From the NCBI GenBank assembly GCA_043758065.1, contig JAYVOE010000078.1:1-57223 (forward strand): a stretch of DNA of 57,223 bases, written 5' to 3'. Source of the stretch: Spartobacteria bacterium. GTDB lineage: Bacteria > Verrucomicrobiota > Verrucomicrobiia > Chthoniobacterales > DASVRZ01. The notes below the pieces were generated by a model, which was given only the letters and a program-made list of their open reading frames with translations, made no database searches and was not told where the DNA came from. Within the stretch, counting starts at the first letter, position 1; each line of letters opens with the position of its first letter. A program made the position numbers and the translations under genes. Positions 1-57,223 of the stretch are shown piece by piece.

Positions 1-804
1 GAGTTAGAGCAATATGAGGCCTACTCGCAGGTCGCCCAGGCCACGCTGCCGCACTCCGTCATCATTCGCACTATGGACATTGGTGGCGACAAATTCGTCG
101 GCGACGAACGCAAAGAGCCCAACCCTTTTCTCGGTTGTCGCGCCATCCGGCTTTGCCTGGAAAACATCCCCGTCTTCAAAACCCAACTCCGCGCCATCCT
201 TCGCGCCAGCGTCACCGGCAACGTCCGCCTGATGTATCCGATGATCTCCAGCATCGACGAACTCCGGCAGGCGAATGCGATCTTACTCGACTGCAAAAAC
301 GAACTCCGCGCCGAGGGCATCGCCTTCGCCGAGAAACTCGAAGTCGGCGTCATGATCGAAGTCCCCAGCGCCGCCATCTGCGCCGACAGCTTCGCCCGCG
401 AAGTGAATTTCTTCTCCATCGGCACCAACGACCTCATCCAATACACCATCGCCGTCGACCGCGTGAACGAACAAATCGCGCACCTCTACCAGCCGACGCA
501 TCCGGCCGTTTTGCGGCTGATTAAAATGGTCGTCCGCGCCGCGCATTCCAACGGCATCTGGGTCGGTGTCTGCGGCGAAATGGCCGGTGACGTCGTCATG
601 ACTCCCCTCCTCCTCGGCCTCGGCATCGATGAATTGAGCGCCTCGACCCCGTCCGTCCCGCGCATCAAACGCGCTGTCCAATCGCTCCACCAGAGCGAAT
701 GCGAAACCCTCGTGGACCACGTGATGGACCTCGACACCGCCGACGAAATCTTCAACGCGATCGAGTCCCACGCCCGCGAGCGCTACGCCGAACTTTTGGG
801 TTAG
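1..804 (+). CDS. ptsI: phosphoenolpyruvate-protein phosphotransferase (PTS enzyme I), C-terminal part; 5' end outside window
   Basis: Frame 1 is open from nt 1 (ELEQYEAYSQ..VIIRTMDIGGDK) into the listed 73..804 ORF. IRTxDIGGDK, FFSIGTNDLIQY and CGEMAGD are PEP-utilizing-enzyme signatures. TAG at 802-804. Confidence 0.9.
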   Translation, partial: ELEQYEAYSQVAQATLPHSVIIRTMDIGGDKFVGDERKEPNPFLGCRAIRLCLENIPVFKTQLRAILRASVTGNVRLMYPMISSIDELRQANAILLDCKNELRAEGIAFAEKLEVGVMIEVPSAAICADSFAREVNFFSIGTNDLIQYTIAVDRVNEQIAHLYQPTHPAVLRLIKMVVRAAHSNGIWVGVCGEMAGDVVMTPLLLGLGIDELSASTPSVPRIKRAVQSLHQSECETLVDHVMDLDTADEIFNAIESHARERYAELLG

Positions 805-838
805 ACTTCGAGAGGAATCCCGGCGCACGCATTTCTCG

Positions 839-2188
839 TCAGGATCGTGGCGAGCGTTTAGTGAGAAACCAGAAACGCGCGATACCAAAAAACGCTGCGA
901 GCGCCAATCCAACGGCGAGCGAAATCCAGATGCCGCGACCATTCATGTGGCGAACGAAGGCCAGGTAATAGGCCAGCGGCAGCGCGATCACCCAGTAGGC
1001 GACAAAGGCGGTGAGCGTCGGCACGCGGACATCGGAAAGGCCATTCAGGCACCCACCGGCGATGACTTGCAGGCCGTCAAATATTTGGAAAATACCCGCG
1101 ATCGATAGCAATCCAGCCGCCATGAAAACCACGTCCTGTTCTTTCACAAACCAGCTCGCGATCGTGCCGCCGAATGTTAGAAAAACCAGCGCGAACGCTC
1201 CCATCACCATCGTCCCGATCGCCATCGCAGACAGGCCGATCGTGAGAAGTCGGCTGCGTTGATTCGACCCGACGGCGTGTCCGACGCGGATGCGCGCGGC
1301 GAAGGAAATCCCCAGCGGAAACATGAACGTCGTTGCCGCGCAATTGATCGCGATCTGATGCGACGCCAGCGTTTTTGCGCTGATCCAGCCCATCATGATT
1401 GCGGCGCAGCCAAACGCGCCGACTTCCATCATGAGCGACAACGAAAGCGGCGCGCCGAGTTTCGCCATCGTCCACAGCCGCGCATTTTCGAGTCGCGCAA
1501 ACCAGCGTTTCGGCAGCGCCGATTGATAAAATGACCCGCGCAAAACACAGGCGAGTAAGATCGATATGGAAACGATCCGCGCCGTGAGCGTGCCGAGACC
1601 TGCGCCGACCAAGCCCAGCGCCGGTGCGCCCCAGTTTCCATAGATGAAAATCCAGTTCAGAAACACGTTTAGCCCGACGGCGGAAAGCATGATCACCATC
1701 GGCAGCCACGGGCAGTGCAGCGCCTCGCTGAACTGCTTCAGGCATTGCTCGAGCATCGCCGGAACGAGCGACCAGGCGACGATCCGCAAAAACGGAATCG
1801 CCTGAGCCACGACGTCCGGTTCCTGTCCGAAATGATTCAGGTAGAACGACAAACCCGTGACCAGTGAGGCGACTGCAACTCCGATGGAAAGTGCGATGAA
1901 CAACCCATGGCGCAAGATTTGACCCGCCTCCCGCGCATCTTCGCGCCCGTGGGCTTGCGATGCGAGGATCGTCACTGGAATTTGAAAACCCAGGCCAATG
2001 ACGAAGAATACCGTCAGGATGACCGACGCAAACGACGCCGCAGCCAGCGGCACGACCCCGACGCGACCGACCATCACCGTGTCGGCGACGCCCATCAGCA
2101 TCTGACTTACCTGCCCCGCCATCATCGGCACAGCGAGGCTCAACGTCAGGCGAGCTTCACGCCAGAAGGAATTTTCAGTCGAGTTCAA
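839..2188 (-). CDS. MATE family efflux transporter
   Basis: 449-aa multi-pass hydrophobic ORF. N-terminus FWREARLTLSLAVPMMAGQVSQMLMGVADTVMVGRVG is typical of MATE (NorM/DinF-like) pumps. The only in-frame start is TTG at 2188. Confidence 0.85.
   Translation of the reverse strand: MNSTENSFWREARLTLSLAVPMMAGQVSQMLMGVADTVMVGRVGVVPLAAASFASVILTVFFVIGLGFQIPVTILASQAHGREDAREAGQILRHGLFIALSIGVAVASLVTGLSFYLNHFGQEPDVVAQAIPFLRIVAWSLVPAMLEQCLKQFSEALHCPWLPMVIMLSAVGLNVFLNWIFIYGNWGAPALGLVGAGLGTLTARIVSISILLACVLRGSFYQSALPKRWFARLENARLWTMAKLGAPLSLSLMMEVGAFGCAAIMMGWISAKTLASHQIAINCAATTFMFPLGISFAARIRVGHAVGSNQRSRLLTIGLSAMAIGTMVMGAFALVFLTFGGTIASWFVKEQDVVFMAAGLLSIAGIFQIFDGLQVIAGGCLNGLSDVRVPTLTAFVAYWVIALPLAYYLAFVRHMNGRGIWISLAVGLALAAFFGIARFWFLTKRSPRS
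2172..2188 (+). repeat. dispersed motif copy
   Basis: ttttcagtcgagttcaa, between the MATE start and the acyltransferase stop. Confidence 0.7.
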
Positions 2189-2194
2189 GTGAAT

Positions 2195-55551: not shown

Positions 55552-56736
55552 ATGATCCACTGCGATTACCTTTTTGTTGGAGCCGGCCAGACGGCGTTCC
55601 ATGCCTGTCAAGCGTTGCGCCAATACGATGCGAAGGGCAGCGTAATGCTAATTGGCGACGACCATTTTCCGCCGCACAACCTGCCCGTGTTGGACAAAGT
55701 GTGGTTCAAGCAAGGATTAACCAGCGCCGATAGCGTAACCGTGGTGCCGCCGGGTTGGTTTGAGTCGCATAAGATTGATTACCGGCCGAGCACGCTGGTG
55801 ACGCAATTTAACATTGAGCGTCGCATGGCGGTGCTGAATACCGGGCAGACAATCGAGTTTAAAAAGGCGTTGCTGGCAACGGGTTCGCGCCCGAAGCGTC
55901 CGCAAATTGCCGGCTTCAATTTGGGCAACATCATTTACCCACGCACGAGCCACGATTTGGGTGCAATCCGGGAAATTTCCAGCCACGAAAAAGCCTGTGT
56001 CGTCATCGGCTCCGGGATTGCTGGTTTGCAATACGCGGCCGCGCTGAAGAGCAGTAACCACAACGTCATCCTGCTGAGCGGCGATAAATTTCTCCTCGAC
56101 GGTCTGGTGGACGCGCCGACCGGGCAATTCCTCAACGATTACGCGCTCGCTCATGGATTGAAGCTCACGCTGGAGGAAAATCTGAATGGTTTCGAGGGCA
56201 AGACAGTGTTGAAAAACATTCAGCTCAAAAGCGGCACACGCTTCTCGGCCGGGATGGCCGTCGTGGCACTCGGCAGCGAGCCGGATTTGCGTCTTGTGAC
56301 CGGAACGCCTCTCAGCAGCACGAATGGTTGCCCAGTGAATGAGTATCTCGAAACGGACGAAAAAGGCATCTACGCGGCGGGCTCATTAGCCTTGTACCCG
56401 GATCGAATTTTTGGCAGTGTGCGTCGCTGGGATTATCCAGGTTGCGCCGAATTGCAGGGACAAACCGCTGGCGCAAATATCACGGGACGGAAACGCCAGA
56501 AGTTCGAGTATTTGCCGGATTTCTCGCTGAATTTTTTCGATCTACACCTGCAATTCATCGGAGATTTTTCGAAGCCAATCGTGCGAACCCAACTGGTGGG
56601 CGATTACGCAAAAAAGAAGTTCACACTCACCTGCCTGCAAGGCGAAAAAGTCGTCGCAGCCGTGCTCTGCAATCAGCCGCCGGAAGCCCACGAGGCGGCG
56701 ACGTTGCAGATTCGCTCCAGTTTTAAGTCGAGTTAG
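55552..56736 (+). CDS. FAD-dependent pyridine nucleotide-disulfide oxidoreductase (ferredoxin-reductase-like)
   Basis: DYLFVGAGQTA and VVIGSGIAGLQYA dinucleotide-binding motifs. Confidence 0.8.
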   Translation: MIHCDYLFVGAGQTAFHACQALRQYDAKGSVMLIGDDHFPPHNLPVLDKVWFKQGLTSADSVTVVPPGWFESHKIDYRPSTLVTQFNIERRMAVLNTGQTIEFKKALLATGSRPKRPQIAGFNLGNIIYPRTSHDLGAIREISSHEKACVVIGSGIAGLQYAAALKSSNHNVILLSGDKFLLDGLVDAPTGQFLNDYALAHGLKLTLEENLNGFEGKTVLKNIQLKSGTRFSAGMAVVALGSEPDLRLVTGTPLSSTNGCPVNEYLETDEKGIYAAGSLALYPDRIFGSVRRWDYPGCAELQGQTAGANITGRKRQKFEYLPDFSLNFFDLHLQFIGDFSKPIVRTQLVGDYAKKKFTLTCLQGEKVVAAVLCNQPPEAHEAATLQIRSSFKSS

Positions 56737-56741
56737 AGCGC
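56719..56741 (+). repeat. dispersed motif copy containing the oxidoreductase stop
   Basis: agttttaagtcgagTTAGagcgc. Confidence 0.7.
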
Positions 56742-56744
56742 TAT

Positions 56745-57223
56745 CTAGCGGCTTTGCAAAAGATTGGCGACCGCAGCGACGAGTTGGCGCGGCTCAATGG
56801 GTTTGCTAACATAGAAATTAAATCCGGCCAGCAGGGCGTTCTCGCGATCTTCATTTCGTGCAAATGCCGTCAGTGCCAGCACGGGTAATTTTTGTAAACG
56901 TTCGTCCGGGGAATTGCGCAAGCGCGAGATAAATTCGAAGCCGCTGACGACCGGCATGCTGAGGTCGCAGAGAACGGCCTCGACCGATTCCCCGTGGCTG
57001 CTGGCGAGCATTTCCAACGCTTCCACACCTCCGCTCGCCGTCTGCACGACCGCTTCATTTCCTTCCAGAATCTGACTCAAGATGGAACGCGTGGCCGGGT
57101 CGTCATCGACCACCAGCAACCGGGAATTTTTCAGTCGAGTTGCATTCCTACCAGCTGGCAGACTGATGACTTGGGTAATGGATTTCGGCTTTTCGACAGG
57201 CGCATTTTCGGGCGTTTGGACCG
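56745..57223 (-). CDS. response-regulator receiver domain, probably the C-terminus of a hybrid sensor kinase; 5' end outside window
   Basis: LLVVDDDPATR..LCDLSMP..VLALTA..YVSKPI receiver motifs. The frame stays open upstream to the window edge. Confidence 0.8.
   Translation of the reverse strand, partial: VQTPENAPVEKPKSITQVISLPAGRNATRLKNSRLLVVDDDPATRSILSQILEGNEAVVQTASGGVEALEMLASSHGESVEAVLCDLSMPVVSGFEFISRLRNSPDERLQKLPVLALTAFARNEDRENALLAGFNFYVSKPIEPRQLVAAVANLLQSR
57127..57148 (+). repeat. dispersed motif copy (antisense inside the sensor kinase gene)
   Basis: tttttcagtcgagttgcattcc. Confidence 0.75.

Follow-up and report, generated by a model that had tools for sequence, protein, structure and literature searches.

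Two families of DNA-uptake signals, the uptake signal sequences (USS) of Pasteurellaceae and the DNA uptake sequences (DUS) of Neisseriaceae, are the closest described counterparts of the motif reported here. Uptake signals have an abundance of about 1 per kb, are independent of orientation, are tolerated inside genes at a cost to the proteins, and are enriched between genes (PMC7811141, PMC1939737, PMC7371117). They are further characterized by relatively even spacing, dialects, depletion in acquired DNA, and a core combined with phased A/T tracts (PMC7811141, PMC1939737, PMC7371117). The USS of Haemophilus influenzae is abundant and relatively evenly distributed, as expected from molecular drive, and both USS and DUS show lineage dialects (PMC7811141). 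We analyzed a 57,223-nt stretch of DNA (hereafter, the window) from a Spartobacteria bacterium (GCA_043758065.1, contig JAYVOE010000078.1), in which a degenerate motif of approximately 27–28 nt containing GAGTT recurs about every 0.5 kb. The DNA uptake signal is the known phenomenon that combines all of the above properties. With slightly less than even confidence, we propose that the motif is a DNA-uptake specificity signal that was spread by molecular drive and is independent of USS and DUS.

The window is a chromosome segment of Chthoniobacterales (Verrucomicrobiota), as placed by its RNase R, to which the best GTDB species representative shows 73% identity. It has a coding density of 93% and 47 ordinary bacterial genes. 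Identical or near-identical proteins are encoded on contigs of several independent metagenome assemblies, which indicates that the window sequence is not an assembly artefact. The analysis covered approximately 57 kb of the window genome and approximately 47 kb from motif-bearing relatives. Close relatives were obtained by a protein-cluster search and contig look-ups, and were arranged in two single-gene series (RNase R, and M16 peptidase as a second marker) that disagree in detail. Motif-bearing lineages are represented by the samples of ERZ28573550, ERZ28573551, ERZ28573553, and SRR23617278, by GCA_038235115.1, and by the metagenome-assembled genome that contains L166; motif-less sisters are represented by GCA_038228695.1, GCA_036388355.1, and contig ERZ27253126 (L164).

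An iteratively refined position weight matrix (PWM) gave a motif with approximately 20.6 bits. From 5′ to 3′, the motif comprises an A/T tract (positions −11 to −7), T[C/G]A (−6 to −4), [G/T][T/C][C/G], GAGTT (0 to 4), any nucleotide, [C/G]A (6 and 7), [T/G]N-G-N, and [A/T][A/T]T[C/G] (12 to 15), often followed by A. The consensus is WTTTT-SA-KYS-GAGTT-NSA-KNGN-WWTS. The information lies at positions −4, 0 to 3, 7, and 14, and the T at +14, inside WWT[C/G] at +12 to +15, is near-invariant. Three T-[C/G]-A elements are placed 11 and 9 bp apart, together with phased A/T blocks; this spacing indicates that the elements lie on one face of the helix. When all 207 GAGTT sites were aligned without selection, the flanks were conserved on both sides. 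The shared flanks described in a first-pass annotation of the window were thus real, whereas its extent of about 20 nt was too short, the 3′ third with the T at +14 having been missed, and the upstream flank that it called T-rich is also A-rich.

The numbers of sites scoring above 10, 15, and 20 bits in the window were 143, 120, and 92, respectively, against 4.6, 0.5, and 0.05 expected from order-3 Markov simulations. The density was approximately 2.1 per kb (120 sites above 15 bits), corresponding to one copy per approximately 0.48 kb and 2.5 copies per gene; the 1.2 per kb estimated at first was too low. The motif takes up approximately 6% of the DNA. When the matrix was trained on one half of the window and tested on the other, 53–56 sites were found, compared with 0.4–0.5 expected. 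Synonymous-codon shuffles within each gene, in which the proteins and the codon usage were kept, yielded 7.3 sites, compared with the 96 observed. A de novo search with hard assignment and no prior knowledge of the motif found it again in two separate 15-kb chunks of the window; this search was used because expectation-maximization searches in which the number of sites was free or soft settled on the 3-nt periodicity of coding DNA. The excess of the heptamer TCGAGTT/AACTCGA from which the first-pass annotation had started was reproduced (38 copies; 100 dinucleotide-preserving shuffles gave 10.2 ± 3.2 and never as many as 38). Among the 26 copies that it listed, 25 were recovered above 20 bits by the unbiased PWM, and the copy at 50246 fell below 15 bits. 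These results exclude chance and protein or codon composition as the source of the motif copies.

The 120 copies above 15 bits were divided equally between the strands (60 forward and 60 reverse). Copies inside genes (101 of 120) were likewise divided between sense (50) and antisense (51) and occurred in all three frames; the frame TCG-AGT-T was used by 27 of the sense copies, and 25 of the antisense copies read Thr-Arg-Leu-Lys, in agreement with the initial description. Neighboring copies had the orientations ++ (31), −− (31), +− (28), and −+ (29). Neighbors are therefore oriented independently, and there is no hidden polarity switch within the window. Chi and the FtsK-orienting polar sequences (KOPS) are, like the motif, over-represented oligomers inside genes. 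Both are short, polar, and co-oriented with replication. A polar motif of this type was ruled out by the equal use of the strands and the random orientation of neighbors.

Copies in non-coding DNA numbered 19 (16%), compared with 7% of the window being non-coding, which corresponds to a 2.3-fold enrichment between genes. The non-coding share rose to 23–26% among the best 20–50 copies, less than the third given in the first-pass annotation, which had correctly placed non-coding DNA at under a tenth of the window. This enrichment, and a few intergenic copies that end 1–5 nt upstream of a start codon, would suit a promoter, a 5′ untranslated region (UTR) element, a ribosome-binding site, or another transcript-level signal. 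Such copies are found at 8841–8868 (forward, 25 bits, ending at the ATG of the gene at 8868), 34972–34999 (reverse, 26 bits, 4 nt before the ATG at 34968), and 54190–54217 (reverse, 26 bits, 4 nt before the ATG at 54186); an intergenic copy at 43944–43971 (forward, 30 bits) overlaps the ATG at 43962. However, 101 of the 120 copies are intragenic, half of them antisense, there are 2.5 copies per gene, and the intergenic copies have both orientations and no constant distance to gene starts. The promoter, ribosome-binding-site, and 5′-UTR reading, which had been named as an alternative at first pass, was rejected on orientation and position, and we regard a transcript-level signal as hardly credible. 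A search of the whole window with Rfam covariance models gave no match at gathering thresholds, and the folding energy of the motif copies equaled that of shuffles. An RNA structure was rejected on these two grounds. The motif has no dyad symmetry, and, as first described, it is not a hairpin.

The motif occupies any position that tolerates it. Its GAGTTAG supplies the stop codon at 4526 (copy 4509–4536, forward, 23 bits; gene 3315–4526), 18454, and 56736 (copy 56719–56746, forward, 26 bits; gene 55552–56736). The CAT of antisense copies supplies the start codon at 35886 (copy 35867–35894, reverse, 26 bits) and that of the DHFR gene at 37869 (copy 37850–37877, reverse, 28 bits).

Spacing between copies was highly even. 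The coefficient of variation was 0.65, compared with 0.99 for random placement and 0.90 for random placement with a 40-bp exclusion, and the variance-to-mean ratio was 0.22–0.43 (0.22 in 5-kb bins). The largest gap was 1410 bp, compared with approximately 2550 bp expected, and 8 gaps were shorter than 100 bp, compared with 22 expected.

To examine the origin of the copies, codon alignments of RNase R with five relatives were inspected. None of the five sites in this gene corresponded to a motif insertion; the sole gap near a site consisted of 4 codons in L001, the most distant outgroup. The sites are instead runs of synonymous and non-synonymous substitutions. For example, at 6156–6183 (reverse, 28 bits), the peptide YFSLQL is unchanged, whereas its codons are TAC TTC TCC CTC CAA CTC in a motif-less relative and TAT TTT TCA TTG CAG TTG in the window. 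These results indicate that the copies arose by substitution, not by insertion. The GC content at third codon positions (GC3) was 0.43 in motif-covered codons and 0.66 elsewhere, and the amino-acid identity to motif-less outgroups was 0.37 for motif-covered residues and 0.66 elsewhere. The low GC3 and the low amino-acid identity at the copies indicate that the motif has been imposed on the DNA to the detriment of the proteins and of codon usage. Together with the independence of orientation and frame and with the codon shuffles, they bear out the earlier claim that the constraint acts at the DNA level rather than through the protein.

If the copies were what is left of a miniature mobile element, or had been templated by a master sequence, as with repetitive extragenic palindromes (REP), miniature inverted-repeat transposable elements (MITE), retrons, or oligonucleotide-mediated conversion, the many substitutions clustered within 27 bp at each site would be accounted for. 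Against this origin, no insertion in the RNase R codon alignment matches a site, 84% of the copies are inside genes with conserved reading frames, and hairpins are absent. Moreover, intergenic copies are as degenerate as coding copies and no master copy is evident; this equal degeneracy argues for a specificity of recognition rather than for the copying of a master sequence. The insertion, MITE, and REP reading was rejected on the codon alignments, and an origin of this general kind is very improbable. What remains after these exclusions is a degenerate recognition sequence for some protein, which was spread by substitution and has been kept.

The motif is confined to a small group of relatives and, within that group, is distributed patchily. 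In the RNase R series, it occurs at 2.4–2.6 per kb in L081 and L082 (same species as the window), at 1.8 per kb in L163 (93% identity), and at 2.0 per kb in L168 (90%). It is absent from L164 and L165 (84%), L167 (78%), and L001 (73%), while L166 (79%) carries the core only (−5 to +16), at 0.9 per kb and without the upstream A/T tract. In the M16 peptidase series, L235 (86%) has the core form at 0.8 per kb, L238 (84%) has none, L237 (82%) has 1 site in 18.9 kb, and L236 (81%) has 1–2 sites in 21.7 kb; the DNA identity to the window is 74–77% in all four. Few or no sites are present in these other relatives of comparable divergence. The density of approximately 2 per kb thus applies to approximately 85 kb in all (window, L081, L082, L163, and L168) rather than to a whole genome, and the copies extend beyond the window. 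Other Verrucomicrobia (160 loci, approximately 2 Mb) contained 16 sites above 15 bits, or approximately 0.008 per kb, and the background rate of the core matrix was 0.02 per kb. A scan of Joint Genome Institute (JGI) metagenomes with RNase R gave relatives only approximately 50% identical, none of which was motif-bearing. These results indicate that L166 and L235 carry a core-only dialect of the motif. No alternative motif of comparable density emerged from a de novo search of the motif-less relatives; testing 20-kb loci for enriched seven-mers was not sensitive enough to reveal dialects. In L166, the six full-matrix sites are all on one strand, and the core-matrix sites are split 15 to 8 between the strands, not a significant difference. 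None of the five sites that the window has in RNase R is present in the L166 gene, though L235 shares 7 of 13 elsewhere.

Within the motif-bearing group, copies are maintained at orthologous positions. Aligned window sites were kept in 12 of 13 cases in L163, 11 of 13 in L168, and 7 of 13 in L235 at 77% DNA identity, whereas none was kept in L236–L238 or in the RNase R outgroups. The copies conserved in both L163 and L168 are those at 5725–5752 (reverse, 24 bits, in the RNase R tail), 5849–5876 (reverse, 22 bits), 6156–6183, 6949–6976 (reverse, 24 bits; like the preceding copy, not in the outgroups), 7663–7690 (forward, 29 bits, antisense in RNase R), and the weaker copy at 8200–8227 (reverse, 17.8 bits). 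Sites persist in L163 even where the DNA identity falls to 59–74%, as at 9124–9151 (reverse, 28 bits). Orthologous core sites in L235 correspond to the copies at 39947–39974 (forward, 27 bits), 40832–40859 (forward, 15.2 bits), 41594–41621 (reverse, 23 bits), 42335–42362 (forward, 20 bits), 42886–42913 (reverse, 21 bits), 43518–43545 (forward, 22 bits, intergenic), and 44524–44551 (forward, 23 bits). The informative positions are 92–94% identical between species, compared with 80–83% in the flanks.

This conservation bears on the main rival reading, in which the copies would be docking sites for an abundant, lineage-specific intracellular DNA-binding protein that is nucleoid-associated or organizes or marks the chromosome. 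The protein would contact the three T-[C/G]-A elements on one face together with GAGTT, and selection would keep one site per approximately 0.5 kb. Several properties suit such a protein: the information at −4, 0 to 3, 7, and 14, with the T[C/G]A elements separated by 11 and 9 bp and the A/T blocks in phase; the strong under-dispersion of the spacing, with its variance-to-mean ratio of 0.22 in 5-kb bins; the positional conservation even in segments of 59–77% identity; and the absence of an orientation bias. However, close relatives with the same genes and synteny have neither the array nor an alternative motif, so that an architectural role, if essential, would have had to arise or disappear at a shallow depth. 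The sites also cost proteins and codon usage, a cost that drive explains without a benefit at each site, and no candidate protein was identified. We consider docking sites to be a serious possibility but an unlikely one.

The distribution in acquired DNA was assessed in one case. A defence island in L163 (ThsB_TIR, SLATT), with a GC content of 0.507 compared with 0.563, has no strong copy in 2.9 kb, where approximately 5 would be expected. DUS-poor mobile DNA in Neisseriaceae has been used likewise as an argument concerning acquired DNA (PMC7371117). The island (L163 9229–11626, downstream of RNase R) contains ThsB_TIR, SLATT, and DUF2442 genes and is Thoeris-like; the window has a HepT-like toxin gene at this place (4925–5443). 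From the gene content, the site downstream of RNase R looks like a variable hotspot for defence or toxin-antitoxin genes.

The lack of a strong copy in this one apparently acquired island, the restriction to a lineage, and the build-up by substitution are also consistent with a self-recognition mark for another DNA-handling machine, namely an export system (conjugative, FtsK/TraB-like, or gene transfer agent), an orientation-independent stimulator of recombination or repair, or a mark that protects self DNA from a defence system. Drive of a similar kind would result from any machine by which motif-bearing DNA is transmitted preferentially, and the patchy phyletic pattern would fit a mobile gene for the recognizer. 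On the other hand, the known motifs of such machines (Chi, KOPS, TraB repeats, and headful packaging) differ from the present one: TraB recognition repeats are 8-mers, and headful packaging needs far fewer sites. Strand polarity is absent, and viral contigs gave only single chance or unrelated matches. Two exact 17-mers had 61 and 2 single matches, in unrelated low-GC viral contigs, none of which contained a second site. A mark for another machine of this kind is improbable. The 61 contigs (L169–L229, IMG/VR; mean GC 38%) contain one exact copy each of TTTTGATTCGAGTTCCA, presumably as part of a phage gene segment that is conserved and has no relation to the motif array.

The uptake-signal reading can be formulated as follows. 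Motif-bearing double-stranded DNA would be bound at the cell surface by the DNA receptor of a competence machine, for which a type IV pilus minor pilin is the most plausible candidate, through a core of approximately 22 nt, [C/G]A-NNN-GAGTT-N[C/G]A-NNNN-WWT[C/G]. The contact would be made via the three T-[C/G]-A elements on one helix face, to which the lineage of the window would add the A/T tract one turn upstream. Motif-bearing fragments would be taken up preferentially and would recombine with the chromosome, and mutations that improve near-matches would thereby be over-transmitted, which constitutes molecular drive. Copies would build up by point substitution wherever the proteins tolerate them, in either orientation, until about every 0.5-kb fragment contained one. 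Drive needs no benefit at each site, in keeping with the cost to proteins and codon usage, and is expected to level off once a typical fragment contains about one site; the high density could result from short environmental DNA fragments in soil.

The first-pass annotation had already likened the motif to uptake signals. Orientation, genic tolerance, intergenic enrichment, even spacing, and lineage restriction with a dialect agree with this likeness; the terminator pairs of USS and DUS do not have a counterpart here. Close inverted pairs that act as terminators are absent from the window, in which short gaps are depleted and no folding excess is seen. This point is one of several that weigh against an uptake signal. 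No competence or pilus genes are among the 47 genes of the window. No paper on natural transformation or uptake sequences in Verrucomicrobia was found in the literature searched, in which uptake signals are confined to two proteobacterial families (PMC7811141, PMC12616744). Compared with USS or DUS, the motif has a greater length, more degeneracy, and twice the density, and its phyletic pattern is patchy on the single-gene trees. In addition, selection for a function in cis would account just as well for the very even spacing and the strong conservation of position. We hold our confidence just short of even because we infer the uptake, the receptor, and the drive, because terminator pairs are absent, and because the literature searched gave no record of transformation in the phylum. 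An uptake signal is the best reading available and not a demonstrated one.

In the searched literature, sequence-specific DNA uptake is known from two proteobacterial families of animal-associated bacteria. If the motif is an uptake signal, it would be a third, independently evolved one, belonging to uncultured soil Verrucomicrobia in a shallow Chthoniobacterales clade, and would imply that a lineage among the most abundant in soil undergoes natural transformation with self-preference. The motif would then provide a sequence probe for the receptor, as motif-bearing and motif-less sister genomes can be compared, and a new way to test molecular drive as a theory of uptake sequences. If it is instead a docking array, a sequence-programmed, chromatin-like or "self barcode" system would be present in a bacterium of the Planctomycetes–Verrucomicrobia–Chlamydiae (PVC) group, with no described counterpart, and would represent a new form of sequence-encoded chromosome organization. 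In either case, approximately 6% of the DNA is given to the motif at a measurable cost in protein and codon usage. No description of the present motif was found in the literature searched; that it is something categorically new is conceivable, though we doubt it.

The 120 copies consist of 92 strong ones (approximately 20 bits and above) and 28 weaker ones (15.2–20.0 bits). Those not yet given are located as follows, with PWM scores in bits in parentheses. The best copy in the window is at 25585–25612 on the forward strand (34). Further strong intergenic copies are at 23008–23035 (20), 43827–43854 (26), 45812–45839 (29), 49026–49053 (29), 49447–49474 (31), and 55481–55508 (25) on the forward strand, and at 3242–3269 (28), 17535–17562 (21), 20357–20384 (21), 38612–38639 (27), 51590–51617 (27), and 52867–52894 (28) on the reverse strand, to which a weaker reverse-strand copy at 4723–4750 (19.7) is added. 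The other strong copies on the forward strand are at 2170–2197 (33), 2465–2492 (24), 3684–3711 (22), 10619–10646 (21), 10906–10933 (25), 11715–11742 (28), 12615–12642 (29), 13199–13226 (26), 14844–14871 (29), 15056–15083 (24), 15933–15960 (27), 16241–16268 (28), 22451–22478 (24), 23987–24014 (23), 26379–26406 (22), 27847–27874 (26), 28640–28667 (21), 28882–28909 (29), 30679–30706 (22), 30782–30809 (21), 32192–32219 (27), 32494–32521 (25), 34112–34139 (24), 44773–44800 (32), 46845–46872 (28), 49899–49926 (21), 50277–50304 (27), 53398–53425 (25), 55090–55117 (23), and 57126–57153 (30). Those on the reverse strand are at 272–299 (23), 1865–1892 (20), 2655–2682 (27), 3169–3196 (30), 8380–8407 (31), 8708–8735 (28), 9851–9878 (22), 10196–10223 (25), 14212–14239 (31), 15747–15774 (21), 17825–17852 (22), 19693–19720 (28), 20569–20596 (21), 22738–22765 (22), 25146–25173 (23), 29433–29460 (27), 30609–30636 (29), 37050–37077 (31), 37166–37193 (25), 38121–38148 (26), 38204–38231 (20), 39382–39409 (25), 40249–40276 (26), 41332–41359 (21), 47807–47834 (28), 51743–51770 (26), 52185–52212 (24), 55293–55320 (25), and 55379–55406 (23).

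The other weaker copies on the forward strand are at 793–820 (15.7), 1542–1569 (17.7), 8960–8987 (17.5), 11754–11781 (18.5), 13513–13540 (18.3), 15648–15675 (19.0), 19041–19068 (19.4), 21698–21725 (19.2), 24205–24232 (15.6), 26054–26081 (18.4), 29848–29875 (18.2), 35567–35594 (17.8), and 51967–51994 (17.9). The reverse strand has 9512–9539 (20.0), 14354–14381 (15.5), 18305–18332 (16.9), 21600–21627 (15.4), 23665–23692 (17.7), 27322–27349 (18.5), 33631–33658 (17.1), 45678–45705 (16.8), 48820–48847 (17.3), 51922–51949 (17.5), 54930–54957 (19.3), and 56383–56410 (18.5).

The genes of the window include those for RNase R, aspartokinase, a polysaccharide cluster, ThyA/DHFR, an M16 peptidase, and KdsA-LptCAB; there are no tRNA genes in the window. 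A giant open reading frame (ORF) at 23062–30978 encodes 2638 aa, with a Pfam signal limited to a TSP3_bac repeat and a weak GH57 stretch, and the adjoining ORFs at 31184–32167 and 22352–22831 have weak alpha-amylase matches. A second heptamer, TGTTAGT/ACTAACA, occurs 25 times, compared with 2.3 expected from the order-3 Markov model, in 23062–30978 and elsewhere; TGTTAG copies are antisense in one frame of the 2638-aa ORF in 16 of 53 cases and have no common flanks. An effect of codons or amino acids (ACT AAC, Thr-Asn) is the probable cause of this excess. A 389-aa protein encoded at 46616–47785 has an unusual multi-NDK architecture, with nucleoside-diphosphate-kinase (NDK) stretches at three separate places.

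Comparison of the window (5851–10537) with L163 (3291–8246) gave a mosaic of identities, with 96–98% at the DNA level over RNase R and an FkbM-type methyltransferase gene and 59–74% over the gene for a 568-aa membrane protein of the polysaccharide cluster. This pattern points to allelic replacement at a surface-polysaccharide locus, and none of the recombination breakpoints in the mosaic was tied to a motif copy. In the motif-less L236 (GCA_038228695.1, 19453–21683), dnaA and dnaN are located approximately 5–6 kb downstream of the kdsA-lptC-lptA block. The same block precedes other genes in the window, and the synteny near the presumed origin differs.

Among the described systems, cyanobacterial HIP1 (GCGATCGC) resembles the motif in being very abundant, in occurring in coding and non-coding DNA, and in belonging to one lineage; what it does is not settled (PMC4390886). 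In contrast to the long, asymmetric, and non-palindromic motif, HIP1 is a palindrome of 8 bp and is linked to orphan methyltransferase sites. Copies of HIP1 spread by substitution and persist at orthologous positions. The Neisseriaceae DUS (ATGCCGTCTGAA), which is bound by the minor pilin ComP, is like the motif in being hyper-abundant, free in orientation, and lineage-specific, with dialects, and it is depleted in mobile elements (PMC7371117). The DUS is a 12-mer present in near-exact copies, in contrast to a degenerate 27-mer, and its pairs form terminators, unlike those of the motif.

The Pasteurellaceae USS, with its core AAGTGCGGT and two helically phased AT tracts, is like the motif asymmetric, approximately 30 bp long, and composed of a strong core and phased tracts. 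Both occur at a density of at least approximately 1 copy per kb, in both orientations and several genic frames, with intergenic enrichment, relatively even spacing, and lineage dialects; the USS density is lower in strain-specific DNA (PMC7811141). The two differ in that the USS information is concentrated in a 4-bp inner core and that of the motif is spread over approximately 20 bp, and in that USS forms overlapping inverted pairs at gene ends and the motif forms none. Protein–DNA complexes have been modeled for the USS (PMC12616744). The motif is also twice as dense and occurs in a different phylum, and the sequences are unrelated: its consensus has nothing in common with USS (AAGTGCGGT/ACAAGCGGT) or with DUS (ATGCCGTCTGAA) and its dialects, which indicates that it belongs to neither family. 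If the motif is an uptake signal, it would represent an independent third kind, in a phylum distinct from that of USS and DUS.

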